Of a stretch of 64,000 bases of DNA, positions 3,254-63,412 are shown piece by piece. Positions within the stretch are counted from its first letter, which is position 1. Each line of letters begins with the position of its first letter. The notes under the pieces were generated by a model, which was not told where the DNA came from, made no database searches, and worked only from the letters and a program-made list of their open reading frames with translations. Source of the DNA: a bacterium (lineage in GTDB: Bacteria > JACRDZ01 > JAQUKH01); the NCBI GenBank assembly GCA_040754625.1, contig JBFMCF010000054.1, forward strand, positions 548 to 64,547, read 5' to 3'. Position numbers and translations under genes: made by a program.

Positions 3254-3254
3254 T

Positions 3255-4088
3255 TTATGTCCTTATTACAGATAAAAGTTCTTCAGGGTTCACATTAAGA
3301 TGCAATTTCCACTTTCTTAAATATTTTCCTTCCCCTGGCAAAACTGGATCTAACCGTACATAAGTTTCTGTAAGATGCTTAAAAAGAATTCCCATGTTTT
3401 CTTGACTCCCAATATTGTAAAGTTCCAATAAATATCCGAGCCTGCGAATAACAGAACCCACATTCATTTCCACAGCATATTCAATAAGCCGGTTTATATC
3501 CATATCTTTATGTCCTATCCATAGGCCCTTGGCTACTTCTGTTAATCCACCGCAATATTCCGGTTGTCTAAGACAATCAATAATTGTCCGTTCAGGATTG
3601 CTGAGTCTTACCTTTTCTTGCTTTGTCGCCCAATGGTCAGTCAATCCGAAAAAAAGTTTTTTCTTGCTTCGTATAAAACGAAACTCTATACCGTGTGTTT
3701 TAATGGGTCTTCGCGATTTTAAGACTGTAACATAAACAACTAATTGCGGCTGGGTAACCATATTGTGAATCTCCATTGCTGTCCCGTGAGAGAGGTAATA
3801 ATCTTTTCCATTCACAATTTCACGCGCAACAATTAACGGATTCCCCGTATATTCAGATTCTTTTCCAAGCTCAAGCGGTATCAGTATAAAAAGTCCTGCT
3901 TTTAATCGTGTAACAATTCCTCTGTTAATAAGTTTACGAACAAAATTCCGCGATGCAAATTCATCTAAATGAAGAATTTTTTGTACATCCTTTAAATGAA
4001 ATATGCGCTTGTTCTGATCGTATAGGGTAGTAACTAAATGAGAAGAACGAGGGCCCATTGTTTTAGATTTAGTATATTTTTTTTGCAT
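3255..4088 (-). CDS. abiEi: AbiEi antitoxin / transcriptional regulator (COG5340-type)
   Basis: 277 aa. N-terminal wHTH plus a C-terminal domain typical of AbiEi. Translationally coupled to abiEii. Confidence 0.75.
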   Translation of the reverse strand: MQKKYTKSKTMGPRSSHLVTTLYDQNKRIFHLKDVQKILHLDEFASRNFVRKLINRGIVTRLKAGLFILIPLELGKESEYTGNPLIVAREIVNGKDYYLSHGTAMEIHNMVTQPQLVVYVTVLKSRRPIKTHGIEFRFIRSKKKLFFGLTDHWATKQEKVRLSNPERTIIDCLRQPEYCGGLTEVAKGLWIGHKDMDINRLIEYAVEMNVGSVIRRLGYLLELYNIGSQENMGILFKHLTETYVRLDPVLPGEGKYLRKWKLHLNVNPEELLSVIRT

Positions 4089-6763: not shown

Positions 6764-9700
6764 TTACTTTCCTTCGATAATAATTTTATCCAGCGGAGTA
6801 TAAGCGACTATTTCCGGAGAATACATCAATTCAACCTTTGAGGAAGGAACAATAAACTCTCCCGCGCAAACCGCCCTGGCATAATAACTGTATTCATAGG
6901 GGCCCTGCCATATATCGTTTTTAAATACAAGCACCCGGTCATTCCTTATTTCAAAATAATTGGGGACAAAATTATAAAAACCGCCCGGATTCCAGTAATA
7001 CCAGTAATACTCTTCTTTATTATAATTTGACCCGGCCGGCACCGGTTCCTCTGTTTTTATGGCGCTGTTTATCGCCACAAATCCGGCAGGAAAAGGGTCA
7101 TCAATGGCAATGTATTGATAATGGCCCCCGGCCTCTATTTTAATTTTTACCTTGACTATATCCCCTACCCTGATTTTATTTTTACCGCTTGTGCTTTCGA
7201 TATCCTTTGAAATTCTAAAACCGTTCGAATAACCTTTTTCGCCGTAATCCACTCTTGGAAAATTTATTTCCACTTTATACATTAATGATTCCCTGGAATC
7301 GGAAAATAATGTAAAAGAAGGATTGTCCATAAAATCCCGCGGGTCAAGCTCCAGGGAATAGTTTTTTAGAGGGTCAAATTGGAATTTCCATTCTTTGCCT
7401 TGAGGATTTTTAACACCGAAATTTACAAGCCCGCTGGCAAAATTCAGGCCCTTGAAATACTCTCCCAGGGCCGCCAAAGCCCATCCCGTGTCAGTGGTGG
7501 TCCTCCATATTCCCTGCTTATCAATATTACCTATCAATTCCAATGCCAGATAATTTTTGATTTCATTGTCTGAAACAATATTAACACACGCTATTAACGC
7601 CAAAGCCCTGCCTATATGCCTGCTGTAATAATGCCCGTAATATTCAGAATAACCCGCGGGGGAATTTAAAACATCCAGCAATTCATTTTGCAGTGTTTCC
7701 TTCGGCACAAAACTGGAAGCGCCCGCGGCAGCGATCAAAATAATCCGGTTTTCTTTAGGCTCTCTTTCCTTATCTTTTGAAACAGTTTCAAAAGTATTTT
7801 TATCCAGCCTGCCGTTTAAGGCAAGAAGATACGAAGCAAGGATTTTAAACGAACTGTCGCTGTTTGTCCCGTTTATTTCGCTCCTTAGATAATTTAATGA
7901 TTTATCAAACAATGAAGAAGGGACATCAAATCCTCCAAGCCTGGCCCTGGTTAAAGCGTTCACCGCATAAATTGAACCCCATGGACTCGGCCTCCTATCG
8001 CCCGGCCAGTATCCAAAACCTCCTGAATCAGTCTGCATACTGAGAATCCTCTCAACACCCGCCTTTAAAAATTTATCTGTCTCTTCTGCGGAAATATCCG
8101 GGACAAGGCCCTGTAATATCAGGTTCCTGAGCGCCGCCAGGGGGAAAACCCCGGAACTGGTCTGTTCAATACATCCATAGGGATATCTTAAAAGATATTT
8201 TAACCCGGGTGAGAGCTTGAAAAAAGGCGATCCTGAAACAGTCAAAACGCATTTAATTTCATCCTCGTTTAAATCCCGCCACTTTATTGATTCGGTCCCT
8301 TCAGGAAATGTATAAATAATTTCCTTCGAACCGGAAAAATTCCCGAATAAAACGTCTTTCCCGCGTATATACCCTGAATTTACAGGGACCTTAACCTCAA
8401 CTGCATCTGATTTTCCGTCAAAACTGCCGCTAAAAGTTACGGTAGAAAATCCTGCTTTTTCCGCCTTTCCTTTTACGGGAATAAGGCTCCTGTCATATGA
8501 GTTCAAAGGATAATTGCTCTTTTCATCCGCGGCTGACAACGCGAGGTTCCCATCCGGCCTTAAATCTATATTGACGGTCCCGCTGCCTTCGGTTTTATTA
8601 AAAGCCGACAATAGAAACAAAAAAGTATCGCCTTTTGTCAAAAATCTCGGGAGCCCCGGTTCAAGGTAGAAATCCCTGGTAACCAATAATTTTCTTTCAA
8701 CCGATTCAAACCGGCTTCCCTTATCGCAGGCAACAACATAAACACGGTATGAAGTTATAGTGTCCGGGCATTTAAAACGTATTGACGCATTGCCGTTTTC
8801 ATCAGTTAAAACAGCCGGGTTAAAATAGGCAACCGGCCTGAAATCTTTCCTCATTATGGGAGTTGACACTTCTATCCCTTCGTCCCCGCCGCCGCCCCCG
8901 GTCAACGGCAAATTAGACAATTCCGAAAACGGAGTCTGCCCTAAAAGAAACGGAGTGAAATCATAGGTAAAAACAGAAAGGGGATAAACAAAACGGATTA
9001 AATCATTCAGGCGGGGCGTTCCATACCTGGTTAAGGCGAGGACACTTTCATCAACAACACCAACAGCCAATTCACTTACAAAACCTTTATTTTTTTCATC
9101 CAGAACCTTAATATTAAGTTCTACTTCACTCCCGGGCAGGGCTTTAAGTTCCCTGTCTTTCTCATTAATGGCAACCTTTATTTTATTATATTGTTTTTTT
9201 ACTTCGACATTAACATACCCGAAAGCCACAGACGGCATTTCCTCATCGTATTGATAGCTGTAGTTTGGAAAATCACCCCTCGGGACCATTCCCGTCAATG
9301 AAATATAAACGTTTGGATAATAATCTTCTTTTACCGGCACCTTAATCTCGGGTGAACCAGGCGATACCTGGACAAGTTTATAATCTAAAATATCCCCGCG
9401 TTCAACCGTCATTAAGTAAGTTGACAATTTCTTTTTAGAATTCACCATTATTTTTATATCTTCATTTTCCGTGTAATATTTTTTTTCAGGTATTAAATTT
9501 ACCTTTTCATATACCGCATTCCGGGATGTTTCCTCTTCCGAATAATCATAGTAATAATATCCTTCAACTTCATAAATTGTGCTCGAAGTATAAATTTTGC
9601 CGTCATTTTCATAACTAAAACTCAAAAGATATTTCCCGCCCCAGTTAAAATCAAAATCAAAAATCGCCTCGCCGTCCGCGATATTGATAAAACTGGAATA

Positions 9701-12232: not shown

Positions 12233-12742
12233 TTAATATAAATCATTAATTTTTTTTATTAACTGTGTGATTATTTTGCCTGTAGCAAAATCCGATGTGT
12301 CGATAGTTAAATCAGCCTGTTTGTAACAGGGCGCGCGTTTTTTCAAGATGGACTTTATTTCCTTAAGCGGTTCAGGCTTGTTTAAGAGCGGGCGGGTTCC
12401 TTTCTGTTGTTTTATTCTTTCTAAAATAATTTCGGGGCTTGTTTTTAGACATATTATAATCCCTTTTTTCTTAAGACGCTCCATATTTTCGGGTAAAAGG
12501 ACAGCACCCCCTCCTGTTGAAATAACAATGTTGTTTTTCTTTGAAGCTTTTTTAATAATATTTTTTTCAACATTTCGAAAATATTCTTCGCCTTTTTCTT
12601 TAAATATTTTTGAAATCCTTTTCCCTTCGTTCTTTTCAATTAAAAAATCAGTATCAATAAATTCCATGTTTAATTTTTTGGCCAAAATTTTCCCCAGTAT
12701 AGTTTTCCCCGTAGCCATAAAACCGATTAAAACAATATTCAT
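12233..12742 (-). CDS. aroK: shikimate kinase
   Basis: 169 aa. P-loop ...IVLIGFMATGKTILGKILAKKL... Lies downstream of the pilQ region, as in many proteobacterial pilMNOPQ-aroK arrangements. Confidence 0.85.
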   Translation of the reverse strand: MNIVLIGFMATGKTILGKILAKKLNMEFIDTDFLIEKNEGKRISKIFKEKGEEYFRNVEKNIIKKASKKNNIVISTGGGAVLLPENMERLKKKGIIICLKTSPEIILERIKQQKGTRPLLNKPEPLKEIKSILKKRAPCYKQADLTIDTSDFATGKIITQLIKKINDLY

Positions 12743-12755: not shown

Positions 12756-14630
12756 TCATTTTTCCTTTTTGAATTTTTCTAAAAACATTTCATCTTCTTT
12801 TGACCAGTTAACTAATTCCCTTTCGTAATCGGTCACTCCCAGATCTTTTATTTTCTCAATCCTTTCTATTTCCGCTAAATTATCCTTAAATTTTCCGGGA
12901 TCATTTGCCTTCAAGTAAATATATGCCAGGTAAATCCTCGCCCCTAAAAAATTCGGTTCCAGTTCTACGCTTTTTAAAAAATATCTCTCGGCTTCGTTTA
13001 ATTTTAAACTGGAAAGATAGAATTTGGCAAGATAAAACGGATAAAAAGCGTTATGCGGGTCATATACAAAACATTTTTCCATGACAGCCGACGCCAGATA
13101 TAAATTAATTTCTCCCTGCATATTATTGTAATAAAAAGAGGCCAGTTTGGAATAAAAAACCGCGTTGTCTTTCTCAAAATATATAGCATGATGATAGAAT
13201 TTCTCAGCCTCTTTTAATTTTTCTTTTTTTGGCTTATCATTATCCAAAAGCAAAGCTTCCGCAAGGTAGGAATAGACGGGAGCGATACCGGGTGTCCATT
13301 TAACTGCCTTTTTAAAATGCCTGACAGCTGAATTTACATCTTTTCTGTTAAGATAAAAAAATCCGGCCTTTGTTTCAAAATATGAAAAAACCGGGGTGGA
13401 AACAAAAAATATAAAAATTACGACCGTTATAAAAGACAAATACGATAGATATGAACTTGGCAGGACTATTTCCGCTTTCTTTTTGCAGGTCAGGCTCTCA
13501 TGCGCCGCCAATAAAAAAACAAACAGGACGGCAATTCCAGGGTGGTGAAAATTGTAATCAAAGAAACCTTGTAATATAATCAAACCGGCCGCCGTATAAA
13601 TGTTAAATATAAAATTATTATTTTTTTCTTTTATTAAAAAAATAAATTTTACCAAAAATACAAATCCGGTAATAATCCCGGTAAATCCAAGTTCCGCGCC
13701 AAGCTCGAGAAATTCATTATGGGCGTATTGGGCAAACCTTCCATACTGGCTCACGGCCCCCTCGACGGGCAGGCGGAACAACAGGTAGCTGTTTTTATAA
13801 TTGCCGAGGCCGACTCCGTCCCAAAAGTTTTCTTTTATCATCCGGACACTGCTTTTCCATATTGAGATCCGGTAATATGAAAGAACATCCCTGTTCCCGG
13901 TGTCCAAAAACCTTTTCATATTTGGTGTGAAAAATACCGCTATAAGAAAAATCCCGGCTATAATAAAAAACCATTTCGAAAAACCAAACTTTTCATGAAT
14001 CCAGATCAACATGACAAAAAAAAGCAGGAGCAAACCTGTCCGGGACTGTGAATATATTAAACTAAAAATAATAAAGGCTGATAAAAGTAAATAATAAAAT
14101 ACCCTGATATTTTTTTTATCTCTTGCTCCTTTTGAGATTTTACCGGGTATAAATACCAGCAAAGGCACAAGAAAACCCATAAGGAAATTGGGGCTTGCAA
14201 ATGTGCCGGTCAGCCGCATTTCCCCGAGATAAAATCTTTTCCCGACGGCAAATATTGATTCGGCAAGGGCAAAAAAAAGAAAAATATCGACAAGTCCATC
14301 CGCCTCATTATCGGTTTCTATAAAAATCACAAGAAGGTAATAAAGAACAATTATACTGATTATTTTAATCCACTCTTCGCGCGCGAAAAATGAATTAAAA
14401 TTTCCCAAATAATTTAATGTCGAAAAGACAAAAAGAAAAAAGACAGGCAGATCAAAGTTTGTTCTTTTAAAAATCACTTTTTTTTGGTAAAAAGAACATA
14501 AAAGGAAAATACCAAGAAGCAGAAATATCAGGATTTCAAGAGATTTAATGGAAACAATGCCCGCGCTTGAACTGAAAAATACAGAAAGAAAAAAAAGAAT
14601 AATAAATAAGGTATGGTTAAACCGCCTCAC
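12756..14630 (-). CDS. polytopic membrane protein with O-antigen-ligase/Wzy_C-like domain and C-terminal TPR repeats
   Basis: 624 aa with many TM segments followed by about 200 aa of TPR-like repeats. Overlaps the aroC stop by 4 nt, so it is in the operon. Confidence 0.6.
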   Translation of the reverse strand: MRRFNHTLFIILFFLSVFFSSSAGIVSIKSLEILIFLLLGIFLLCSFYQKKVIFKRTNFDLPVFFLFVFSTLNYLGNFNSFFAREEWIKIISIIVLYYLLVIFIETDNEADGLVDIFLFFALAESIFAVGKRFYLGEMRLTGTFASPNFLMGFLVPLLVFIPGKISKGARDKKNIRVFYYLLLSAFIIFSLIYSQSRTGLLLLFFVMLIWIHEKFGFSKWFFIIAGIFLIAVFFTPNMKRFLDTGNRDVLSYYRISIWKSSVRMIKENFWDGVGLGNYKNSYLLFRLPVEGAVSQYGRFAQYAHNEFLELGAELGFTGIITGFVFLVKFIFLIKEKNNNFIFNIYTAAGLIILQGFFDYNFHHPGIAVLFVFLLAAHESLTCKKKAEIVLPSSYLSYLSFITVVIFIFFVSTPVFSYFETKAGFFYLNRKDVNSAVRHFKKAVKWTPGIAPVYSYLAEALLLDNDKPKKEKLKEAEKFYHHAIYFEKDNAVFYSKLASFYYNNMQGEINLYLASAVMEKCFVYDPHNAFYPFYLAKFYLSSLKLNEAERYFLKSVELEPNFLGARIYLAYIYLKANDPGKFKDNLAEIERIEKIKDLGVTDYERELVNWSKEDEMFLEKFKKEK

Positions 14631-17578: not shown

Positions 17579-18154
17579 TTATTTTTCCGCTTTCATTTCG
17601 ATTTGCCTGTTCAATATATTATTGCCTTTCATCATCGTCAGGTTTACGGAATTTTTATCAATATCTTCTATTCTTATTTTTTTATCTTTTCCGATATAAT
17701 CATTTTTCTGGTAAATAGTATCATCTCCTCCAAAAAGCACAAGGTAGCCTTCTCCATCCCCCAGGATTGCCGCAATTTCAATTTTACCCCATTCTTCATT
17801 AAAGATATTAGCTCCCAATTCCGCCATTTTTTTCTCTTCTTCTTCCTTCCTTTTCTTTTCCTCCAATTCCGCTTTCATTTTTTCTCTTTCCAGCATAAGC
17901 GAATAAAAAGGGTCTTTTCTGTTCTCGTAAGGATATATAAAGCCCGACGGTTCTAAAAGGGAAAAATCTATTTCTTTAGTTACCATAAGCTGTTTTTCAG
18001 CAACTTTTACCGCCTCTTCACGGTGTATGTTTTTTCCAGCAATTTTACTCACTGCCTCCCTGACTTTGGAAGCTTCTTTTTTTGTGTCTACTTCCTGCTT
18101 TGCACAAGCAGCGAAAATAAAAATAATTAATAAAAAAAATAAATTTTTTCTCAT
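17579..18154 (-). CDS. pilP: PilP-like pilus assembly lipoprotein
   Basis: 191 aa. Lipobox (FAAC), a KDPFYSL motif and its position immediately upstream of pilQ. Confidence 0.5.
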   Translation of the reverse strand: MRKNLFFLLIIFIFAACAKQEVDTKKEASKVREAVSKIAGKNIHREEAVKVAEKQLMVTKEIDFSLLEPSGFIYPYENRKDPFYSLMLEREKMKAELEEKKRKEEEEKKMAELGANIFNEEWGKIEIAAILGDGEGYLVLFGGDDTIYQKNDYIGKDKKIRIEDIDKNSVNLTMMKGNNILNRQIEMKAEK

Positions 18155-52341: not shown

Positions 52342-52854
52342 TTATTCCTTGATATATTTTTTCGGGTCCTTGTCGAATTTTTCTTTACAGGCCTTTGAAC
52401 AGAAATAATAGGTTTTCCCGCCATACACCGAAGTCGCGTCCGCCTCCTCAGAATTGATTTCCATTTTGCAGACAGGGTCTTTGACTTTCATATTCATTTT
52501 GCCCTCCTTTTTCTGGTTTTCCTCTTCTATTTTTTTTATAAATTTTTCAGGGTCCTTTTTGAATTCGTCGATACATGCCGCGCAGCAGAAATCATAAATC
52601 TTCCCCTTGTATTCATAAGCGACCTTTGTTTTTTCGTCAATCTTATCACCGGTCACAGGGCATATGATATTTCCGATATTTTCAGGCTCAACCGCCCTGT
52701 TAATCACAATATCTTTTCCACCTGTCTTTGTTTCCTTGTGTTTTGAACTGCTGTGTCCGGCATGGCCGTCATCCTTCGCGCAGCAATCCATCGCGAAGAT
52801 ACTGATTTGCGCGAATAATAAAAATCCGATTAATAAAATAATGTTTTTTTTCAT
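52342..52854 (-). CDS. secreted protein with two YHS/TRASH-like metal-binding domains
   Basis: Start set at MKKNIILLIGF... (signal peptide). Two ...YxGKxYYFC(S/C)xAC...F..DP.K... modules. Confidence 0.7.
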   Translation of the reverse strand: MKKNIILLIGFLLFAQISIFAMDCCAKDDGHAGHSSSKHKETKTGGKDIVINRAVEPENIGNIICPVTGDKIDEKTKVAYEYKGKIYDFCCAACIDEFKKDPEKFIKKIEEENQKKEGKMNMKVKDPVCKMEINSEEADATSVYGGKTYYFCSKACKEKFDKDPKKYIKE

Positions 52855-52866
52855 ATTTTGTCCTTT

Positions 52867-52938
52867 CGTAGGGGCTGGGTTTCCCAGCCCTATATTATTA
52901 CATTTGTTTAATAAAGGGCGAGGCAACCTCGCCCCTAC
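52867..52938 (-). repeat. structured intergenic element, family GTAGGGG-[hairpin]-AT-rich-[hairpin]-CCCCTACA, copy A
   Basis: Outer stem GTAGGGG/CCCCTAC encloses the hairpins GGGCTGGG-TTT-CCCAGCCC and GGGCGAGG-CAA-CCTCGCCC. Confidence 0.55.
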
Positions 52939-52944
52939 AAAAAT

Positions 52945-53643
52945 TTAATGATAATACAAACTCGATTCTTCTTTCGGAATAATTTTTCCGTCCTGTAAAT
53001 GGATTATCCTCTGCGTCATGCCCGCCAATTCCAGGTCGTGCGTGGCGATAAATATCGCGATCCCTTTTTTCGCCAGCTGATTAAACAAAACCAGTAACTG
53101 GTCCCTGACTTTCAGTTCAAGCTTCCCAGTGGGTTCATCCGCGATTAAAAGCTTCGGATCGTTAATCAGCGCCCTGGCGATCGCCATACGCTGTTTATCC
53201 CCGCCTGAAAGCATATACGCGGGTATGTTTTCCCTGCCTTTTAAACCAACGTCTTCTATAACTTTATATATTTTTTCTTTTTCTATCGGTTTCTTGGCAA
53301 ATACCAGGGGCAGTTCCACATTTTCCACGGCGAAAAGATTTGGTATGAGATAGAACTGCTGAAAAATAAATCCAAGATAATTGCGCCGGACATTAATCAA
53401 CTGGGATTCGTTGAAATGCGTGACATCCTCACCGCCGACATCCAGGGTGCCTGATGTGGCCGTATCCAGGCAGCTTATAAGATTCATCAATGTGGTCTTG
53501 CCCGAGCCCGACGGCCCGACAATCGAAACAATCTCGCCTTTCTTAATTGAAAAATCCACACCGTCCAGGGCCTTGACGGTCTCTGAACCGCGGGTATAAT
53601 ATTTTTTTAGGCTTTTTGCTTCTAATACTATATCATTAATCAT
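52945..53643 (-). CDS. ABC transporter ATP-binding protein (LolD/MacB-type)
   Basis: 232 aa. Walker A GPSGSGKTT, signature LSGGDKQR, Walker B LLIADEPTG. Confidence 0.85.
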   Translation of the reverse strand: MINDIVLEAKSLKKYYTRGSETVKALDGVDFSIKKGEIVSIVGPSGSGKTTLMNLISCLDTATSGTLDVGGEDVTHFNESQLINVRRNYLGFIFQQFYLIPNLFAVENVELPLVFAKKPIEKEKIYKVIEDVGLKGRENIPAYMLSGGDKQRMAIARALINDPKLLIADEPTGKLELKVRDQLLVLFNQLAKKGIAIFIATHDLELAGMTQRIIHLQDGKIIPKEESSLYYH

Positions 53644-53661
53644 TTGACACCTCTTTTTTCT

Positions 53662-53704
53662 AACCGTTTAAACAGTTCAAGCAGTTTAAACGGTTTAAAC
53701 CGTT
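53662..53704. repeat. array of palindromic CGTTTAAAC(A/G)GTT repeats (contains the perfect 16-bp palindrome AACGGTTTAAACCGTT), copy 1
   Basis: Read directly. Lies between the two ABC ATPase genes and overlaps the stop codon of the upstream one. Confidence 0.5.
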
Positions 53705-54389
53705 ATTTAACAATTTCATCCTTCTCAATCCGCCCCTCGCGCAAATGCACAACCCTATCCGCCTGGTAAGCCAGTTTCACATTATGCGTCGCGGCTATTA
53801 TCGTGATATTTTCTTCTTTGCCAAGTTCCCTGAATAAATCATAAATTCCCTGCGCGTTTTTTGTGTCAAGATTACCAGTTGGCTCATCAGCCAGGACAAT
53901 ATCCGGTTTGTTGGCCAGCGCGCGCGCAACAGCCGTCCTCTGCATCTCGCCGCCTGACATTTCTTTCGGCAGATGGTTCATTCTTTTTCCGAGCCCCACT
54001 CTTTCCATTAAATGCTTAGCCCAGCTCAGGTCTTTTTTGTTGGCGAACATCATGGGTAATTGCACATTCTCAAGGGCTGTCAGTTCTTTAACGAGGAAAA
54101 ATTCCTGGAATACAAATCCCAGGTGATGAAGCCTTAAGTCACGCATACGAGAGTCATCAAACAAATTAAGATTTTGGCCCATAACCGTCAAATTACCGTC
54201 CGTTACATGATCAAGGCACCCGGCAAGATTTAGAAATGTGGTTTTCCCGGCGCCTGACGGCCCCATTATCGAAATAAACTCACCTTTGTTTATAGTAAGC
54301 TCTATTCCTTTAAGCGCGACAATCTCTTCCGCGTAAAGGCGATAGACCTTTTTCAATCCTTTTGTAGTTATAACTTGTGTATTTTCCAT
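53703..54389 (-). CDS. ABC transporter ATP-binding protein (paralogue of 52945..53643)
   Basis: 228 aa. GPSGAGKTT, LSGGEMQR, IVLADEPTG. Confidence 0.85.
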   Translation of the reverse strand: MENTQVITTKGLKKVYRLYAEEIVALKGIELTINKGEFISIMGPSGAGKTTFLNLAGCLDHVTDGNLTVMGQNLNLFDDSRMRDLRLHHLGFVFQEFFLVKELTALENVQLPMMFANKKDLSWAKHLMERVGLGKRMNHLPKEMSGGEMQRTAVARALANKPDIVLADEPTGNLDTKNAQGIYDLFRELGKEENITIIAATHNVKLAYQADRVVHLREGRIEKDEIVK

Positions 54390-54409
54390 ATTAACCTCCT
54401 GATATTTAA

Positions 54410-54478
54410 AAACGGTTTAAACAGTTTTTAAATAAACCCGTTTAAACGGTTTGAACAGTTTAAACGGTTTAAACCGTT
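54410..54478. repeat. array of palindromic GTTTAAAC repeats, copy 2 (4-5 units)
   Basis: AAACGGTTTAAACAGTT...CCCGTTTAAACGGTTTGAACAGTTTAAACGGTTTAAACCGTT between the permease stop and the ATPase-2 RBS. Confidence 0.5.
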
Positions 54479-54481
54479 TTA

Positions 54482-56251
54482 TTATTCCCCGCTCCTTATC
54501 GCTTCAATCGGCCGCATCTTCGCCGCGCGGTATGCGGGCCATATTCCCGACAAAACTCCAAGGACAATCGCACCGAGAAATGAACCGATGATTATCCCAG
54601 GCGTGAAATTTATTATCTGGCCGGCCGGGACATAACCCGCTTTGGACATTACCGCCCTGATTAATTTTTCAATAAAACTTCCGCCGAACACGGCAATGAC
54701 CGTCCCGAAAATACCCCCAAAAACACAGATAATAATTGTCTCAAGCCAGATAAGCTTGAATATATCCATACGTGACGCTCCAATCGCCTTCATTATCCCT
54801 ATTTCCTGGGTGCGTTCAAACACACTCATTAAAATAGTATTCATTACCCCGATCAGCGCGACAAAAATCGCGATAAACGCCACGGACATAACGAGGATCT
54901 TCGCGGTCTGCACGAGATTGAGAATCGTCCCTTTCACCTCCGCCAAACTTACAACCTGCGTTTCGCCCAATTCCTTGCGGTTGTATATCCTGTCGGTAAA
55001 AAGCGGGAGCTGGGCAAGGTTATTCAGCCTGACCCCGATACCTGTCAGCATTTTGTGTTTTCTGAAAATCCTCTGCGCCTCTTCAAGCTGGATAAAATAC
55101 GAACCGTCATCCTTCCCGCCGCCTCTTTCCAAAATTCCGACTACCCTGAAGGTATAAGAAGTCAACACGGGTCTCTCCACTTCCTTTTCAATTTCTTTTG
55201 ATTTCCCGCTGGCGGGATCCGTGATTTTTTCCTTTACCTTTTCCCTCGCCATTTCTTTGACCTTGATTGTCAGCTTCTGGCCGACCTGGACAAACCCGGT
55301 CTGCGCGGCCTCCCAGCCGACAACCATTTCGATCTCGCCTTCTTTATCATAGTCAACGATTTTCGGACTTCCTTTTGGATCGACGGCCACCATATCCATA
55401 TCGATTTCCTCGGCATTCGGATACGCCAAATCTATATTCCCGACATTGTAGCTGTCTTTTGTCTCATTAATAATTACACCGACAACTTTACTCCCGTCTT
55501 TTAACGATAATTCATCTTTTGTTTCATCGCCTCTTTTTATCGTATTCACGGCTTCCACATCCAATTTATTATACAATCTTGACGGAAGTATGACCTTTAT
55601 TGTCGAGACGATCTTCTTTTTCTCGATAAAATCGCCGCTAACAGGGTCAAGCTCTGTCCCAACAACTTTTTCATATTTTCCTTCACCTGTAATCAAACCT
55701 TTCAACACTTTGCCGTTTTTCAAATATATCTCGTCCGCTTTAACCTCGCGGGTGTTAAACCACCTGCCCATGGGGCCGTCTATTTCTTTTTCAGTCTCAT
55801 TGCCCGATGAATCAACAACCCTTTCTTTATGTTTTCCCGATGCTATCAACATCATCGGGCGAAGTTTTGTGTAACTTTCCATATCTATACCCCAGAATGT
55901 GTAAAATCCATCCCCGTTTTCTTTAATTAACGGGTTCATTAACATCGGGGTAAGTTCGGCGACCTCCTTGTCCTGTTTTATTTTTGCTATCGTGTCATCT
56001 GTAAGATACCGAAGCGCCCCTGTCCCCGCCAAAGCCACTGTCGCCAATTCGTAAGGACACCCCTTGGCGGTGATTAAGACCTGGTATCCCATGCCGGAAA
56101 CGTCCTTTTCCAGCGCGATGCGATACCCCGAATTAAACCCTAAAAGGCTAACCAAAACCGCCACCGCCACACCCACACCTCCAATTGTCAATAACGACCT
56201 TATTTTCCGCCTGTATAAATTTTTATAGGCCAGATTTAAATATTTTTGCAT
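54482..56251 (-). CDS. ABC transporter permease, MacB/FtsX-like with large periplasmic domain
   Basis: 589 aa. N-terminal TM, a periplasmic domain of about 350 aa and a C-terminal FtsX 3-TM bundle. Confidence 0.8.
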   Translation of the reverse strand: MQKYLNLAYKNLYRRKIRSLLTIGGVGVAVAVLVSLLGFNSGYRIALEKDVSGMGYQVLITAKGCPYELATVALAGTGALRYLTDDTIAKIKQDKEVAELTPMLMNPLIKENGDGFYTFWGIDMESYTKLRPMMLIASGKHKERVVDSSGNETEKEIDGPMGRWFNTREVKADEIYLKNGKVLKGLITGEGKYEKVVGTELDPVSGDFIEKKKIVSTIKVILPSRLYNKLDVEAVNTIKRGDETKDELSLKDGSKVVGVIINETKDSYNVGNIDLAYPNAEEIDMDMVAVDPKGSPKIVDYDKEGEIEMVVGWEAAQTGFVQVGQKLTIKVKEMAREKVKEKITDPASGKSKEIEKEVERPVLTSYTFRVVGILERGGGKDDGSYFIQLEEAQRIFRKHKMLTGIGVRLNNLAQLPLFTDRIYNRKELGETQVVSLAEVKGTILNLVQTAKILVMSVAFIAIFVALIGVMNTILMSVFERTQEIGIMKAIGASRMDIFKLIWLETIIICVFGGIFGTVIAVFGGSFIEKLIRAVMSKAGYVPAGQIINFTPGIIIGSFLGAIVLGVLSGIWPAYRAAKMRPIEAIRSGE

Positions 56252-56267
56252 TGTAATCTCCTCTGTT

Positions 56268-56349
56268 GTAGGGGCGAACCCCCGTGTTCGCCCTTAATAT
56301 AACGGTATTCGTTCCATTATTTGGGCAGACACAGGGGGCTGCCCCTACA
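56268..56349 (-). repeat. structured intergenic element, family GTAGGGG...CCCCTACA, copy B
   Basis: GTAGGGG-CGAAC-CCCCGT-GTTCG-CCC ... GGGCAG-...-CTGCCC-CTACA. Same architecture as copy A, with different compensatory stems. Confidence 0.55.
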
Positions 56350-56351
56350 TT

Positions 56352-56837
56352 TTACTGTTTTAGATAATTCTCTATCTCTCTAATATCAATGTTTAACTTT
56401 TTTATCAATCCATCCTTATTAATCAAAATATTTGTCGGAATCGCGCGCACCATATAAAGGTTCCCTGTCTTTCCTTTTGAATCCAGCAATATTTTGTATT
56501 TTATTCCGCTCGCCCGGACAAAGGATTGGACTGTTTCTTTTGGTTCCTCCAGATTTATCCCTACAATCTCTATTTTATCTTTATATTTTTCAGCAAATTC
56601 ATTTAAACGCGGTATCTCCTCTCGGCACGAGGGGCACCAGCTTGCCCAGAAATTCAGGATTATCTCTTTTCCATTTAAAAGGCTTTCCAGAGAAATTTCA
56701 TTGCCGTCCAAATCCAGAATGGAAAAATCAGGGGCTTCGTCTCCAACCGCCATAAACCGCGGTTTTGGGCCGCTGCAGCCCATAAAAAGCATGGAGCATA
56801 GAGCATAGAGCATGGGAATCAAAATAATTTTTTTCAT
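56352..56837 (-). CDS. TlpA/ResA-like thiol:disulfide oxidoreductase
   Basis: 161 aa with a lipoprotein signal peptide. WASWCPSC thioredoxin motif. Confidence 0.8.
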   Translation of the reverse strand: MKKIILIPMLYALCSMLFMGCSGPKPRFMAVGDEAPDFSILDLDGNEISLESLLNGKEIILNFWASWCPSCREEIPRLNEFAEKYKDKIEIVGINLEEPKETVQSFVRASGIKYKILLDSKGKTGNLYMVRAIPTNILINKDGLIKKLNIDIREIENYLKQ

Positions 56838-56885
56838 AAAGTTTAACTATCCTCCTCTAACCTCTCTTAATCTACCCTTATCAGG

Positions 56886-56926
56886 GGAGAAACCGATTAT
56901 CCCCCTGATAAGGGGGAATAAAAGGG
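56886..56926 (-). other. long GC-rich hairpin (CCCTTATCAGGGG...CCCCCTGATAAGGGGG)
   Basis: 12-bp inverted repeat with a 12-13-nt loop, between the 134-aa lipoprotein gene and tlpA. Confidence 0.35.
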
Positions 56927-56928
56927 GG

Positions 56929-57333
56929 TTATTTTATCACCAACCCCTTCGCCAGGACCTTCGTCTCTTTCGGTTCCCCTTCAGTCTGATAAACCAGACC
57001 CCTGACAATCACATTCCTGCCGACCCTTTGAGGGATTGTTATCGGGGTCCCGTGCATTTCAATGTAAATCATGGCGCCGTCTTTATCGCGGATATTTACC
57101 CATCCGCCGGTAGGGCATTCAGTGCCTATCTGGCCCTCAACAATGACCTCGTTATTAACATAGTCCTGAGGGTTGACCAAAAGGCTCCCGATTGCCGTCC
57201 TTGGCGCGTTTTCATCAACCGCCTCGCCGAATTTTTCCGTTTTCGGGCCGCAGCCCACAAAGTATAAAGTGATAAGTGTCAAGTTTAAAACAAGAATAAA
57301 AAACATTACCTTCCTAAAATTTTTCCCAATCAT
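56929..57333 (-). CDS. hypothetical lipoprotein (possible metal-binding)
   Basis: 134 aa. Lipobox VGC. Several Cys, His and Met residues. Confidence 0.4.
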   Translation of the reverse strand: MIGKNFRKVMFFILVLNLTLITLYFVGCGPKTEKFGEAVDENAPRTAIGSLLVNPQDYVNNEVIVEGQIGTECPTGGWVNIRDKDGAMIYIEMHGTPITIPQRVGRNVIVRGLVYQTEGEPKETKVLAKGLVIK

Positions 57334-58595
57334 TTTAATTTACCTTCCTTTCTTAAATATTCTTCAATCTTTTTTTCGATCTCATCCTTCTTAAAGAAAT
57401 TATGAAAATAAGTGTTATCCGCTAGGATTAATGCCTTTTTTACAGCCGAAAGTACGTCCTGGGTTATATCCTTATTTTCAACCTCAATTTTTATGGGCCC
57501 GATTTTATCTATTTTCTCGTCCGTTAATTTAGTCCTTGTCAGGACATCCTTCGCGTAAAAATTCACCAGGGATATATTTTTAACCTGGTCGAACCCGGAT
57601 TTATTTATCTCCAGGGACAGTATCCTGCCTTTTTCCTTGTCCTGGGCGCCGATGGCAACCACCATGTTGAATTTACCAAGTGCAGTATTCAATTCCAGGG
57701 GTATCACATATCCCAGGATAATTCCCCGGACAAAAGGCTTTTTATACACATCATCCCTGTAAATCACGTAAAAAGAATAAATTGAATCCGACGACACAAG
57801 GTCAATTACATATCTTGACGCGTTTGGAAAAGATTTTTGGACCTGTTCCAACGGATTTTCGCCTAATAATGCGGTTTTGCTCTCAGTAAACTTTTTTATT
57901 TTGGCAAAGGCCTCGTCCTTTTTGATCTTATTCCCGAATTTAAAGTCATCGAGATACACCAGGACTTTTTTCATACCGCGCAGTGTCTTATGGAAACCTT
58001 CATTTTCTTTCGGCGCCGGGTTTTGTATGCGGCTGACCATATCCAGGGCCAAAATATTCCTGTCTTCAATTTTCTGGCCCGTCAAATATTCATTAAAATA
58101 AAAATGTTCCAAAGTCAACCCGATAAATTGGGAATAAAACTCCGGCGTCTGGAGTTTTTCCTTTTCGAATGAGGGCAGTTTCTGGTAGTAAAATTCCCGG
58201 ATCCTTTCATCCAGGTCAAATGCCAGCATCAACTGCGAATTATCCGCCCCGGGCCAGCCCTGGTTCGCGCCGAAGACCCAGCCAATCGCGTCCGGGCCTT
58301 TAAGGATTTCATAAAAGACATAGGGAATGTCCTTTGTTTCCCATATCGGGTCCCATTTGTCACCCAGGCGTTTTTCCAATTCCTTATACAGGGCCTCGCC
58401 GCCAATTCCCCGTTTATCGCCTGTTTCATCCGTCCTGATAAATTCCGCGCGGTAGTTGGTCCTTTCCGGGAAAAGACGGATAGTGTCCTGGTCCGCGTTC
58501 GTCAACTGGCACGGGACCACCTGGGACTGGGCGAACAGTTTCAATGTTACAAATAGCATAAAAATTATCAAAATTGTTACTAATTTCTTATACAT
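57330..58595 (-). CDS. hypothetical secreted protein
   Basis: 421 aa with a signal peptide. No family recognised. Confidence 0.45.
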   Translation of the reverse strand: MYKKLVTILIIFMLFVTLKLFAQSQVVPCQLTNADQDTIRLFPERTNYRAEFIRTDETGDKRGIGGEALYKELEKRLGDKWDPIWETKDIPYVFYEILKGPDAIGWVFGANQGWPGADNSQLMLAFDLDERIREFYYQKLPSFEKEKLQTPEFYSQFIGLTLEHFYFNEYLTGQKIEDRNILALDMVSRIQNPAPKENEGFHKTLRGMKKVLVYLDDFKFGNKIKKDEAFAKIKKFTESKTALLGENPLEQVQKSFPNASRYVIDLVSSDSIYSFYVIYRDDVYKKPFVRGIILGYVIPLELNTALGKFNMVVAIGAQDKEKGRILSLEINKSGFDQVKNISLVNFYAKDVLTRTKLTDEKIDKIGPIKIEVENKDITQDVLSAVKKALILADNTYFHNFFKKDEIEKKIEEYLRKEGKLK

Positions 58596-58721
58596 AAAAT
58601 CTCCTTATAAAATTCAAAAGGCAAAATGAAAAAGTTAAAATTGTAGTGTGTTTCGCAAAATATTTTTTATCACGAAGTGATCCCATATTTTTAATTTTGA
58701 TTTTTAAATTTTTCATTTATT

Positions 58722-59924
58722 TTACCCCTTCTGCCCATAAAACAACAGTCCTACCCATGTATCCTTTTCCCCGAAGATAGTATCAAGGTCTCTCGATACC
58801 ACAAACTGCAGATTATAATTCGCGGAAAAGCCGTAGGTCAATCCCCCGCGGAGCGCGGTATTACTGCCGTTTTCGGGACTGCCGCGATTCTGGGTAAAAT
58901 TCTCAAATTGCGCGAATCCGGACCATCTGTTATCCCTGTCCAGCGAGTATTTTATTTCAGCAAATTCCGCCAAGACATTTTCCTTATCCGCGTCCCTGCC
59001 AACGGAAATCTCTCCGCGCAGCCTTAATGGCCCATACAACTTTTGCCCGTCCAGTCCCATCCGCCATTTTTTTATAACATTACCCATGAAACTGCTTTCT
59101 TTCTCATCCATTGTGACACTTCGCAGTTTTTCAACGGCCATGGGATCAAATACTTTTCCGATCAGGCATGACATTCCCAGCCATTCATTAAGGTGTTCCC
59201 CGATTCTCGGCGTGGATATTTTCCCTGAAAGAATATAGTTCCCGTCCCGTTCAAAATATTCCATGCCGGAACCTCGGGTAACCGCCGCCTGGTATTCGAA
59301 TAATTCATTCTGCCCTTCCAATCCCACACCCCAGTCCCTGTCAACTCCTGAAAATTCCATCGCGGGGCTTTGCAGTAACGTGCCGTGCGTGTCAATCCAC
59401 GGCTGTATGCCGAAAGGTACATAAAAATGGCCCAGCCTGACATTTACCATCGGCGGTAAAACACGGAGCCTCAAATAAGCATTGTGCAATTCTGTTTCAA
59501 AATCATTCCTGCCTTCGGTATATTCACGGCCCATCTTACTGCCATAAGCGAATTGATTGTTATAATAGGCCGCTCTGAACTGCACATTCATATCGCCTAT
59601 CTGCCCCCTTTGACCTGAAAATGTCCCGAATAAAATAAAACCGAGCGAATTCCTGCCTTCCATCTGTTCAAGCTCAGACGAATATCTTTCAGAAAGGTAT
59701 AGCTCTTTGTAAATAATATAACTGTCTCTCCTGGCCATTGCTTTAAAAAGGTTTTTCAGGAACTGATCACTTCGTGAAAAATACGGTTCCGCCTTTTGCT
59801 TTTCAACGGCTTTGGGCCTTTCCAAATCCGCGCCTATTTCTTCCAGAACGTCATCCGAGGCAAGGCCCGGCTTTCCAAAAATAAATATTAACATTAAAAA
59901 ACCTGACAAAATAGTTTTAAACAT
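58722..59924 (-). CDS. putative outer-membrane (porin-like) protein
   Basis: 400 aa with a signal peptide and beta-rich sequence. Confidence 0.45.
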   Translation of the reverse strand: MFKTILSGFLMLIFIFGKPGLASDDVLEEIGADLERPKAVEKQKAEPYFSRSDQFLKNLFKAMARRDSYIIYKELYLSERYSSELEQMEGRNSLGFILFGTFSGQRGQIGDMNVQFRAAYYNNQFAYGSKMGREYTEGRNDFETELHNAYLRLRVLPPMVNVRLGHFYVPFGIQPWIDTHGTLLQSPAMEFSGVDRDWGVGLEGQNELFEYQAAVTRGSGMEYFERDGNYILSGKISTPRIGEHLNEWLGMSCLIGKVFDPMAVEKLRSVTMDEKESSFMGNVIKKWRMGLDGQKLYGPLRLRGEISVGRDADKENVLAEFAEIKYSLDRDNRWSGFAQFENFTQNRGSPENGSNTALRGGLTYGFSANYNLQFVVSRDLDTIFGEKDTWVGLLFYGQKG

Positions 59925-60033
59925 AATTACTCCATTGAAATTTTTAACTTAAACCATCGGCAATAATTCCAAATTAATTATACTACTATTAATTTGAAAC
60001 AAGCCGCAAATCTCTTGAAAAAATATTTTTTGA

Positions 60034-60420
60034 TCAAATAAGAAATGAACAGTCTTTGAGGAAAATTGGAATGGAACAAGATTTGAATAAAAATTCACCG
60101 CTGTGCAAAATATCATTGTTTTCTGAAAGAACATTAACATAGCGCCTATTTTGCACGAATGATACGAACTGTTTTAATAAACTATTGGCCGCGTTGCTTT
60201 TATTTTCAAAAACAAAATCCAGGGGAATGCTTATTTTGCACTCGCATTTCGAGGTATTCTTATAATTAAATGAAGCCTTCTTGGAACAGCATGAATGATT
60301 TTCTTCATTTTTTTCCATCCCGCAGCAAGTCTTCACATACGCAAACCCTGATGCGGTGCCGAATAAAAATATAATCCCTATAATGAACGCTTTTTTATAT
60401 TTTTTTATGAAATTAAACAT
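60034..60420 (-). CDS. small membrane-anchored Cys-rich protein (CC..HSCC..CEC motifs)
   Basis: 128 aa. N-terminal TM followed by TCCGMEKNEENHSCCSKK...CEC. Lies immediately downstream of csoR. Confidence 0.45.
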   Translation of the reverse strand: MFNFIKKYKKAFIIGIIFLFGTASGFAYVKTCCGMEKNEENHSCCSKKASFNYKNTSKCECKISIPLDFVFENKSNAANSLLKQFVSFVQNRRYVNVLSENNDILHSGEFLFKSCSIPIFLKDCSFLI

Positions 60421-60434
60421 CGAAATTCCTTTTT

Positions 60435-60719
60435 TTATTTGCGAAAATTTTCCAATACGTCAACAATTTCCTTTATTTTTTCCCGTTTTTCTTTTTCAGT
60501 TCCGGAAATAAATGCGTTCGCGAAACAAGTCTCTAAATGTCTTTTAAGGATATTGTTTTCAACTTTTTTTACCGCCCCGGCAACCGCTGAAAGCTGGAGG
60601 AGGATATCCACGCAATATCTTCTTTCTTCGAGCATTTTCTGTATCCCGAGGATCTGCCCTTCAATTTTTTTAAGCCTTAATATTTCATCTGAATGATACG
60701 CGCCTTTTATCATTAACAT
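60435..60719 (-). CDS. csoR: CsoR/RcnR-family copper-sensing repressor
   Basis: 94 aa. The Cys-His-Cys ligand pattern (RYCVD...KRHLETC) is conserved. Confidence 0.8.
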   Translation of the reverse strand: MLMIKGAYHSDEILRLKKIEGQILGIQKMLEERRYCVDILLQLSAVAGAVKKVENNILKRHLETCFANAFISGTEKEKREKIKEIVDVLENFRK

Positions 60720-60736
60720 CCCTTTTTAAGGATAAT

Positions 60737-60758
60737 ATACCATACTCCCCCAGGGTAT
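60737..60758 (-). promoter_or_regulatory. CsoR-box-like pseudo-palindrome upstream of csoR
   Basis: On the minus strand it reads ATACCCTGGGGGAGTATGGTAT. This resembles the B. subtilis CsoR operator, which is recalled from memory. Confidence 0.45.
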
Positions 60759-60781
60759 GTCAAGTGTTTTTTTTATTTTTT

Positions 60782-63412
60782 TTATTTCCGCCCGTCAATC
60801 CCCTGAAATTCATATCTCTTCATCAAAAGCGAATTGCTTACAACGGACACAGAACTGAAGGCCATGGCCGCTCCCGCGATCATCGGGTTAAGGAGAAAAC
60901 CAGTGAAAGGGTAAAGTATGCCCGCGGCAACCGGTATACCAATCGTGTTATAAAAAAACGCCCAGAAAAGGTTCTGCTTTATTTTTCTCATCGCGTAACT
61001 TGAAAGATCCATCGCAATCGCAACATCGCGGAGATCATCTTTTATAAGGACAATATCTCCCGACTCAATCGCGACATCTGTTCCTGTCCCTATTGCTATT
61101 CCGATATCAGCCTGGCTTAAAGCAGGAGCGTCGTTTATGCCGTCTCCTACCATGGCAACTTTTAAGCCCTCAACCTGAAGTTTTTTTATTTCTTCCGCTT
61201 TATTCTGCGGCAATACTTCAGCCAAAACACGCTCTATTCCAAGCTGTCCGGCTATCGCTTTACCTGTGCGGACATTATCACCTGTTATCATAATAACATT
61301 CTTGCCCATATTTTTTAAAGCGTTAACCGCTTCTTGAGAATGTTCCTTTAGCGTATCGGCAACCGCAACCAAACCTTCTAATTTATTATTTATAACTACG
61401 AGCATGGCAGTCTTTCCCTGATTTTCCAGATCCTGCAAAGCATTTTCCCTCGACAAGACATCAATCGACAGGTTCTCCATAAATTTTCTGTTACCAAGAT
61501 AAATAGTTTTTCCCTGCCACAGGGCTTGGACACCTTTACCTGTTATTGAATCGAAACTTTCCGCCTCCGGTACGGTAATATTTCTTTTCTCCGCGCCTTT
61601 TACAATCGCCTCTCCAAGCGGGTGCTCTGACTTTTTCTCGGCCAGTGCGGCAAACATTAAAATATCATTTTCGCTGTAACTTCCATGAGTTATAACATCC
61701 GTCAATTCAGGTTCCCCTTTTGTAAGTGTCCCTGTTTTGTCAAAAACCACGGTATTGATCTCATGAGCCGTCTGAAGCGCGTCCGCGCTTTTTATCAAAA
61801 TACCATGTTCAGCGCCAAGCCCTGTTCCCACCATAACGGCAGTCGGAGTGGCAAGCCCTAAAGCACAGGGACAGGCAATGATCAACACAGCTATAAAAGT
61901 TGAAAGAGCGAACACAAAACTTTTTCCGGCAAGCATCCATCCGGAAAACGCCAGTATCGCTATTAAAACAACTGCAGGGACAAAATAAGCGGATATTTTA
62001 TCCGCCAATTCCTGAACACGGGCTTTAGACCCTTGAGCTTCTTCCACAAGTTTAATTATTTGAGCAAGCGCGGTATCTTTCCCAACCTTAGTAGCCATAA
62101 ACTTAAAACTCCCTGTTTTATTTATTGTCGCGCCGATAATTTTTGAACCCGCGGATTTTTCAACAGGAATACTCTCTCCTGTCAGCATGGATTCATCAAC
62201 GCTTGAATGCCCCCCGGCCACTTCTCCGTCAACCGGAATTTTTTGTCCAGGTTTTACAATAACTATATCACCGGGGATCACCTCTTCTATCGGAATTTCC
62301 TGTTCACGGCCTTCCCGTTCCACCAAAGCGGTTTTCGGCTGAAGCCCCATAAGCTTTTTTATCGCTTCTGAGGTTTTACCCTTCGCGACCGCTTCAAGCG
62401 TTTTACCGAAAAGAATAAACGCTATAAGTATTCCCGCGACTTCAAAATACAGATTTTCTATACCGCCGTAGTTTGTATTGCCGCGCCAGATATTAACAGA
62501 TACAAAAAGGCTGTACAGGTATGCCGAACCGGTACCGACAGCGACAAGCGTATCCATGTTGGCAGTTCTTGTTTTAAAAACGGCTGTTATTCCCCTCGTA
62601 TAAAACTGGTTTCCAATGATAATTATAGGGGTCGCGAAAACAAACTGCAGAAGCGCCATATTTTTCATAATGATTTCAGGCACAGGCAAACCTATGTGAT
62701 GCCCCATCGCGAGATACAGAAGCGGAATTCCCAGAATAAAAGAAAATATAGTTTTAAACCTGAGCGTATTAATTTCTTTTTCCCTTGCCTCTCTTTCCGC
62801 GTCAACTGTTGATTCAGTTTCTTCAAGAGGCGTATATCCCGAGTCCTTTATTGTTTCTTTTATTTTTTCTTTAGTAATCCTTGAAGGGTCAAATGTTATG
62901 ATCCCCCGCTCATTAATGAACAATTCTTTTGATATGATTCCTGGCAGGCTTTCAATCGCTCCTTTCACTGTTCCCAGGCAATGCGGATTATCCATCCCTA
63001 TTATTTTAAGCCTTAGCACATTACCCTTATCCTGCGTTTTTGGTTTTATGACCTTATACCCTATTTTTTCAATGGTATTTTCGATCTTCTGCAGGCCGAC
63101 CGCCTGCGGGTCATATTCAACCAGGGCCTTGCCGGAAGCGAAATTCACATTCGCCGTGTACACGCCTTTCATGCGTTTAAGCCCCATCTCGATAGACATG
63201 ACGCAGGACGCGCAGGTCATGCCGGATATGCCTATAATTGTTTTTTCGAGCTTCATGCCTTCGGGCGCTTTTTTATGTTCAAACGGCAGGTCCTCTCCCA
63301 AAAATTTACGTTTGCAGATATTACTGCAAAAATAATAAATTTTGCCGTCTTTTTCCGCTTTTATGGCCGTCTTTTCATCGACTTCCATGCCGCATACAGG
63401 GTCAATGGCCAT
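60782..63412 (-). CDS. copA: copper-translocating P1B-type ATPase with N-terminal TRASH/YHS-like domain and HMA domains
   Basis: 876 aa. [12 protein letters not shown]...YYFCSNIC (TRASH), GMTCASCV (HMA), CPC, DKTGT, GDGIND. Confidence 0.9.

Follow-up and report, generated by a model that had tools for sequence, protein, structure and literature searches.

Escherichia coli-type bacterial interspersed mosaic elements (BIMEs) combine alternating types of REP (repetitive extragenic palindromic) sequences with inter-REP motifs that bind IHF or gyrase. REPs within E. coli operons, such as the one at malE-malF, reportedly stabilise the upstream mRNA, attenuate transcription and disturb translation termination. 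A REP whose distance from a stop codon is no more than about 15 nt may interfere with termination. Two inverted REPs with a short spacer, together predicted to form a hairpin, constitute a REPIN (REP doublet forming hairpins; Bertels & Rainey 2011, PMC3116915). In that description the doublet as a whole is what replicates, so that homologous doublets turn up at several loci, and the genome also encodes a cognate REP-associated tyrosine transposase of HUH/Y1 type, usually with REPs on its flanks. In the survey by Di Nocera et al. (2013, PMC3733652), which numbers 24 GTAG families, the GTAG-REP is a palindrome of 20–40 bp with a GC-rich stem of 6–13 bp, a short loop and an unpaired GTAG end, and it is dispersed in many copies through extragenic DNA. 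The same survey describes head-to-head (HH) heterodimers, which have their GTAG termini outside, spacers of 20–100 bp and partners that differ in stem and loop sequences, and states that REPs between genes of the same direction tend to sit near the 3′ end of the upstream open reading frame (ORF). The two works also describe REPs that supply stop codons and that fold alternatively as two hairpins or a single large one. Here we analysed a 64-kb window of bacterial DNA (64,000 nt; assembly GCA_040754625.1, contig JBFMCF010000054.1, positions 548 to 64,547 of the forward strand), in which two intergenic elements, termed e1 and e2, lie inside a copper-related operon (Table 1). Our analysis indicates that e1 and e2 are very probably REPINs, namely non-autonomous mobile DNA inserted between the genes of this operon. 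Elements of this kind are already well described, and e1 and e2 are a further instance in an unclassified, uncultured lineage.

Sequence analysis revealed that both elements are doublets whose GTAG tags face outward. On the + strand, e1 reads cGTAGGGGCTGGGTTTCCCAGCCC-TATATTATTACATTTGTTTAATAAA-GGGCGAGGCAACCTCGCCCCTACa and e2 reads tGTAGGGGCGAACCCCCGTGTTCGCCC-TTAATATAACGGTATTCGTTCCATTATTT-GGGCAGACACAGGGGGCTGCCCCTACa. The general REP unit is an unpaired GTAG, then an 8-bp stem GGGCNNNN, a loop of 3–6 nt and NNNNGCCC. All four units follow this scheme (n = 4; 23–26 nt each, one stem with a single mismatch), with GTAG immediately 5′ of the stem in 4 of 4. The internal stems are GGGCTGGG/CCCAGCCC and GGGCGAGG/CCTCGCCC in e1, and GGGCGAAC/GTTCGCCC and GGGCAG/CTGCCC in e2. 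Element e1 is composed of short-loop variants and e2 of 26-nt variants, and the partners within each doublet differ from each other, making each element a heterodimer. The spacer of e2 further holds a small hairpin of its own (AACGG...CGTT). In each element the two arms are mutual inverted copies of 27–34 nt with 78–79% complementarity; the whole element can thus fold either as two local hairpins or as one long hairpin. Given that GTAG tags and 8-bp GC-rich stems, arranged in two inverted doublets, fit the published definitions, both elements were assigned to the REPINs. An earlier note on this DNA, made from the sequence alone, had placed the two copies correctly to within 1 nt, and the layout it gave is present in both: between GTAGGGG and CCCCTAC lie two GC-rich hairpins with an AT-rich spacer. 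Its remark that the internal stems differ and remain self-complementary was borne out, but it named one stem per copy where two are present. Among the identities it offered, that of a REP/BIME-like element holds, since units of a GTAG tag plus a GC-rich palindrome face each other head-to-head, the arrangement known from REPINs and HH dimers (PMC3116915, PMC3733652).

Compared with the described systems, e1 and e2 share with REPINs (PMC3116915) the inverted REPs, the short spacer, the prediction of a single hairpin and the extragenic location. Moreover, the doublet recurs as a unit in genomes other than the source, and same-type doublets cluster around a transposase gene, as detailed below. They differ in that the host is an uncultured bacterium known from a metagenome-assembled genome and not a member of Pseudomonas or Enterobacteriaceae, that the arms differ, and that only two doublets and no cognate transposase gene were seen in the 64 kb. 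With the GTAG-REP HH heterodimers (PMC3733652) they have in common the unpaired GTAG, the 8-bp stems, the loops of 3–6 nt, spacers of 25 and 29 nt, unlike partners, codirectional neighbouring genes, a position near the upstream 3′ end and, in one relative (L243), the supply of a stop codon; unlike them, the present lineage lies outside the species analysed there. Like the BIMEs and REPs of E. coli operons, they are inverted pairs of two REP types located between cistrons and close behind a stop codon, whereas the E. coli REP is GTAG+GCCGGATG with a bulge and the present one GTAG+GGGCNNNN.

Within the window, both elements stand out statistically. Four of the five GTAGGGG heptamers on both strands of the 64 kb fall inside e1 and e2, and among the inverted repeats of the window e1 is the longest (I1) and e2 ranks seventh (I7). 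The folding z-scores are -6.4 for e1 and -7.05 for e2 (-6.4 to -7.1 over both strands of both elements), and none of 200 shuffles folded as well. A scan of the window for GTAG followed by a GC-rich hairpin returned exactly four units, all in e1 and e2, against 0.92 expected from shuffles with a maximum of 3. A covariance model of the REP unit, the building of which the earlier note had proposed, recovered the same four units and no others at E<0.2 with filters off, and detected no degenerate extra copies in the window. The units score 18.1 bits (e1-left, E = 0.004), 21.5 bits (e1-right, E = 4e-4), 41.7 bits (e2-left, E = 4e-10) and 40.9 bits (e2-right), the two e2 units being in the model seed. 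As RNA, the minimum-energy fold of either element is one long imperfect hairpin, at -39 kcal/mol versus -33/-34 kcal/mol for the alternatives in e1 and at -50 versus -31/-34 kcal/mol in e2. As single-stranded DNA, e1 favours two separate hairpins and e2 the long hairpin. An outer stem with two internal hairpins, namely a three-way junction, was rejected as the preferred RNA fold, being 5–17 kcal/mol less stable than the long hairpin; the earlier note, which described the elements in this way, was right about the sequence layout, but as a fold it is a suboptimal RNA alternative.

Comparison with relatives provides the evidence for mobility. Orthologous operons were reached via homologs of the FtsX permease in the operon, including L241 (GCA_028719205.1; 88% FtsX identity, the closest relative with a long contig), L243 (94%) and L245 (GCA_040961635.1; 76%). 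In L241, the sites of e1 and e2 are both empty, with a spacer of 11 nt between the TlpA-like and FtsX genes and of 22 nt between the ABC ATPase and YHS genes. The same locus carries a homologous doublet at 12484-12545, between the two ABC ATPase genes, which reads GTAGGGGCAGACCCATGTGTCTGCCC-AAAAATAATG-GGGCGAACACATGGGTTCACCCCTAC. It equals e2 in arm types and in order and orientation relative to transcription, and both spacers begin with AAATAATG. Three further REPs, one of e1 type, lie downstream of a Tex-like gene in L241. In L243, the e2 site is occupied by a single REP of another variant, GTAGGGGCGAATAATCATTCGCCC, from within which the stop codon of the upstream gene is supplied. In L245, a single e2-type REP followed by an unrelated hairpin occupies the e2 site, a REPIN doublet lies at 17621-17697, and REPs are also found at other operon junctions. 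The 22-kb loci of L241 and L245 contain about 7 and about 12 GTAG units, respectively, at various intergenic sites. No REP unit was found in the L244 and L247 loci in a covariance-model scan at E <= 0.1; the e2 site is empty in L244, and L247 has no TlpA-like gene and hence no e2 junction. The earlier note had let its reading depend on further copies or structural conservation in relatives, and relatives do carry copies, at different places. Since the family is multi-copy in this group of genomes, its sites differ between genomes and the window sites are not conserved, we conclude that e1 and e2 belong to mobile DNA and not to a conserved regulatory RNA.

In L243, a 124-aa gene with 23S_rRNA_IVP / bAvd-like Pfam matches (3156-3530) separates the two ABC ATPase genes as an insertion, at a point where the window and L241 have spacer only. 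A second GTAG family, with the stem GTAGAGACGC...GCGTCTCTAC, is found at L244 16132-16159 and at L245 12607-12634 and 14323-14350; its units are fully palindromic and tagged on both sides, and in the L245 operon one of them separates the two ATPase genes.

The hairpin architecture is a property of the family as a whole. In a gapless alignment of 16 REP units of the 26-nt subtype, stem positions are paired in 98.4% of cells, and changes on both sides occur at three stem positions; as the set includes related units as well as units picked by pattern, it is supportive only. Both-side changes amount to 16 cells versus 4.5 in shuffles, with 0 of 500 shuffles reaching 16, and sliding the partner strand cuts the pairing to below 58%. 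The compensatory change that the earlier note took as the mark of a selected structure is therefore real as a family property, but it does not define one conserved RNA. The differing stems are REP subfamily variants forming heterodimers, in which the hairpin would be needed for recognition as mobile DNA, and are not orthologous copies of an RNA. The consensus of the e2-type 26-nt REP is GTAG-GGGC-RRNC-C...GTG-NYY-GCCC, in which conservation extends to the tag, to stem pairs one to four and to several positions of the loop.

A pattern scan with GTAGGGGC-N8-20-GCCC-N30-60-GCCCCTAC extended this family beyond the relatives. The pattern matched at least 120 loci in a genome collection (L001-L120), against about 0.4 matches expected there by chance (our own estimate, with uniform base composition), and at least 120 in metagenomes (L121-L240). 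Among the matches listed, GTAG is followed at once by a perfect stem of 7 bp or more in 92 of 128 right arms, versus 6 of 2560 in shuffles; the interior of the right arm is not forced by the pattern, and 82 different variable stem parts occur among these matches. The listed loci with GTAGGGGC-type doublets include Patescibacteria/Parcubacteria, Peribacteria, Atribacterota, Bacteroidota, Bacillota, Chloroflexota and Cyanobacteriota. The e2-type 26-nt REP is nearly identical across loci named for 8 or more phyla, where it reaches scores of at least 34.6 bits; these phyla include Acidobacteriota, Bacillota, Bacteroidota, Chloroflexota, Cyanobacteriota, Desulfobacterota, Gammaproteobacteria and Hydrogenedentota. 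None of the 240 pattern-derived loci is homologous to the window by blastn, and tblastn gave four distant matches only. A literature search for GTAGGGGC or GCCCCTAC as a sequence returned unrelated primers and promoter sequences only.

The same-type doublets are found next to a gene for a REP-associated tyrosine transposase (RAYT) in several of these loci. RAYT genes were searched by tblastn and by an ad-hoc hidden Markov model (HMM) on six-frame ORFs, which superseded an earlier motif regular expression that had given one candidate. On the metagenome contig L210, a RAYT gene on the minus strand (2930-3445) matches NF047646 and PF01797. It passes the PF01797 cutoff of 23 bits with 33.7 bits, and NF047646 is its best match, at 60.6 bits and below the 80-bit cutoff. 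This gene is flanked by three and five tandem REPINs made of e2-type 26-nt units scoring up to 44 bits, so that the segment 2587-3941 constitutes a REPtron, the REPIN arms of which are almost identical to those of e2. The RAYT of L026 lies inside a REPIN array and passes the NF047646 cutoff (81.7 bits), and RAYT-like genes adjoin GTAGGGGC REPINs also in L044, L199 and L008. Homologs of the L210 RAYT number more than 5,700 from many phyla, at about 45–55% identity, and many are labelled "REP element-mobilizing transposase RayT"; the clade is spread over many non-proteobacterial phyla. In L008, a RAYT-like frame (7469-7962) is split in two by a REPIN at 7709-7777, which suggests that a transposase gene was disrupted by its own element type.

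The GTAGGGGC-type doublets and their RAYTs are thus distributed far more widely than the model organisms of REPIN research, and this spread is more notable than e1 and e2 themselves. Di Nocera et al. (2013, PMC3733652) report that organisms far apart in evolution share some GTAG families and discuss horizontal transfer. Since GTAG families in distant organisms were already noted there, the cross-phylum spread is only a possible extension of that work. It might reflect a single ancient pan-bacterial REPIN–RAYT lineage whose recognition code has stayed frozen, or one spreading by horizontal movement, a proposal we regard as tentative and rather doubtful. If true, such a lineage would extend the field beyond the vertically inherited systems of Pseudomonas and Enterobacteria.

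A putative model for e1 and e2 can be drawn from the published work on REPINs and RAYTs. A RAYT/TnpA-REP, namely an HUH tyrosine transposase, would be encoded once elsewhere in the genome and would recognise the GTAG tag together with the folded hairpin in single-stranded DNA; the doublet would then be copied or moved as a folded single-stranded hairpin (after PMC3116915 and PMC8266576). We propose that, as a consequence of this hairpin requirement, the stem pairing is kept while the stem sequence drifts into sub-families. The model resembles the subterminal hairpins of IS200/IS605 insertion sequences, in which a single-stranded hairpin is recognised by a Y1 HUH transposase and no target-site duplication is made. 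Unlike in IS200/IS605, however, neither a transposase nor an accessory gene lies between the hairpins of e1 and e2, and these hairpins are inverted copies instead of distinct left and right ends. Both elements most likely landed in spacers that lead from a stop codon to the following ribosome-binding site and would otherwise measure 11–22 nt, and, given this placement inside operon spacers, they would be co-transcribed. In the mRNA they are predicted to form very stable hairpins (-39 to -50 kcal/mol). By analogy with E. coli REPs, such hairpins could, as a side effect, block 3′-5′ exonucleases and protect the upstream mRNA, uncouple the translation of neighbouring genes or partly mask the Shine-Dalgarno sequence of the YHS gene. 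An effect of e1 and e2 on the stability or translation of the operon mRNA is plausible on the same analogy.

The host operon was delineated by Pfam scans, which place e1 and e2 in a CopA/CsoR-type operon, in agreement with the copper assignment of the earlier note. In this operon, e1 is located between the stop codon of an ABC ATPase gene (52945-52947) and the Shine-Dalgarno sequence and ATG (52855-52857) of the YHS gene, whereas e2 is located between the stop codon of the TlpA-like gene (56352-56354) and the Shine-Dalgarno sequence and ATG (56249-56251) of the permease gene. On the coding strand, e1 begins 6 nt past the ATPase stop, and 2 nt separate its end from the YHS gene's AAAGGA; e2 begins 2–3 nt past the TlpA-like stop, and 5 nt separate its end from the permease gene's GAGGAG. 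A mechanically called ORF (52342-52926, minus strand, with a TTG start at 52926) runs through e1. This ORF is an artefact, and the real start of the YHS gene is the ATG at 52857, as indicated by its 171-aa L241 ortholog and by the position of the Shine-Dalgarno sequence.

Table 1. Coordinates of e1, e2, their REP units and the genes of the host operon in the window
Feature	Position	Strand	Description
REPIN e1	52867..52939	.	Head-to-head doublet of two GTAG-tagged REPs, 25-nt AT-rich spacer
REP unit e1-left	52868..52890	+	GTAG + GGGCTGGG TTT CCCAGCCC; 8-bp perfect stem, 3-nt loop
REP unit e1-right	52916..52938	-	GTAG + GGGCGAGG TTG CCTCGCCC; 8-bp perfect stem, 3-nt loop
REPIN e2	56267..56349	.	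Head-to-head doublet of two 26-nt GTAG-tagged REPs, 29-nt AT-rich spacer
REP unit e2-left	56268..56293	+	GTAG + GGGCGAAC CCCCGT GTTCGCCC
REP unit e2-right	56323..56348	-	GTAG + GGGCAGCC CCCTGT GTCTGCCC; one stem mismatch
Host operon	52342..63412	-	Pfam scans; gene order matched in L241 and L245
CopA P-type ATPase	60782-63412	-	First gene of the operon
CsoR-type repressor	60435-60719	-	After CopA
Four ORFs without Pfam match	Between CsoR-type repressor and TlpA-like thioredoxin gene	-	
TlpA-like thioredoxin	56352-56837	-	e2 directly after
FtsX/MacB permease	54482-56251	-	After e2
ABC ATPase	53703-54389	-	After the permease
Second ABC ATPase	52945-53643	-	e1 directly after
YHS-domain protein	52342-52857	-	After e1

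The precise placement on the coding strand, each element lying behind a stop codon and ahead of the following Shine-Dalgarno sequence, together with the high stability of the RNA hairpins, might also be expected if e1 and e2 were selected cis-acting RNA structures, such as an mRNA stabiliser, an RNase processing site, an attenuator or a translational uncoupler, with their REP ancestry secondary and exapted. Furthermore, an extended RNA fold of e1 pairs an upstream U-run with the GAAAG of the YHS ribosome-binding site, TTTATT, a weak match to the terminator consensus, comes after the first (inner) coding-strand hairpin of e1, and REPs are found at the TlpA–FtsX junction in the window, L243 and L245 and at other operon junctions in L241 and L245. 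Nevertheless, we consider such a role unlikely. The operon of L241 functions as a counterexample with neither element in its short spacers, the REPs at the TlpA–FtsX junction differ in type and arrangement (a doublet, another singleton, and a singleton plus an unrelated hairpin), and unrelated loci contain the same types of REP. The full elements lack a U-tract behind them on the coding (minus) strand, e1 being followed by GAAAGGAC (CCCCTACGAAAGG) and e2 by AACAGAGG (CCCCTACAACAGAGG), and a scan of the entire window on both strands against Rfam 15 at gathering thresholds gave zero matches. A Rho-independent terminator formed by the full elements was ruled out by this lack of a U-tract. The intra-operon attenuator and the small RNA (sRNA) offered in the earlier note are accordingly unsupported, given the absence from L241, the other REPs in L243 and L245, the missing U-tract and the Rfam result. 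Independent sRNA genes or chance inverted repeats are the most improbable of the readings considered. Both elements are structured and intergenic, and a few promoter-like hexamers occur in the 5.5-kb region (15 versus 10.9 +/- 3.5 expected), but no promoter-like site adjoins e1 or e2, neither element is conserved at the orthologous position, and both the shuffles and the architecture seen across the family exclude chance.

It is also very unlikely that e1 and e2 are miniature inverted-repeat transposable elements (MITEs) of an insertion sequence with a DDE transposase, for which GTAGGGGC... would be the terminal inverted repeat. Their small size, their lack of coding capacity and the long complementary arms would suit a MITE, and a DDE_Tnp_1 gene is present in the locus of one relative (L244). 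However, L244 itself carries no such elements, and the only transposase found beside same-type elements is the Y1/HUH RAYT. The signature of a REP, a palindrome bearing an unpaired GTAG tag, is present in each single arm, and lone arms occur in L243 and L245. Moreover, no target-site duplication or flanking direct repeat is present at e1 (TTTC before and AAAA after the element) or e2 (TGTT before and ATTT after), nor at the doublets of L241, L245 and L210. Several observations weigh against the assignment of e1 and e2 as mobile REPINs. By tblastn and HMM, no RAYT was found in the 64-kb window or in about 110 kb of the relatives' loci L241-L248, an absence that would be expected for a single-copy gene. 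The TlpA–FtsX junction is REP-occupied in three of the five lineages examined, and this repeated occupation may reflect selection for a hairpin there. The only two doublets in the 64 kb both lie within 3.4 kb of one operon and might have been carried along, inactive, on a copper island acquired by transfer. Finally, neither a transposition intermediate nor a presence/absence polymorphism within a population was observed. On balance, the REPIN assignment is retained, and in annotation e1 and e2 should be labelled as REPIN/REP mobile elements, not as riboswitch-like regulators or sRNAs. They present a case of REPINs wedged between the genes of an uncultured lineage's metal-resistance operon, where they could alter relative gene expression.

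The spacers of this operon hold further repeats. Those at 53661-53705 and 54403-54483 each contain 4–5 tandem copies of the 9-nt, partly palindromic C[G/C/T]GTTTAAA, and the orthologous junctions contain short-period repeats of GTCAAAG type in L244 (about 9880-9990) and of CGTTAGT type in L245 (about 13415-13500). The 9-nt tandem repeats are a second, unexplained class of intergenic repeat in the copper operon. At 56858-56931, a 30-nt inverted repeat (I3; 77% complementary, TAACCTCTCTTAATCTACCCTTATCAGGGG / CCCCTGATAAGGGGGAATAAAAGGGGGTTA) without a GTAG tag spans from upstream of the TlpA-like gene start into the 3′ end of a 134-aa ORF (56929-57333). A blastn search of a plasmid collection with the operon gave short matches to ABC ATPases only. 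Elsewhere in the window, the nearest homologs of AroC (P0121) share 80% and 74% identity, the next ones, from Nitrospirota and others, at most 60%. A YhcG-like PDDEXK nuclease (DUF1016) adjoins an AbiEii/AbiEi type IV toxin-antitoxin pair at 903-4088, and translations read by eye point to a long type IV pilus cluster and a protein of 1,810 aa.

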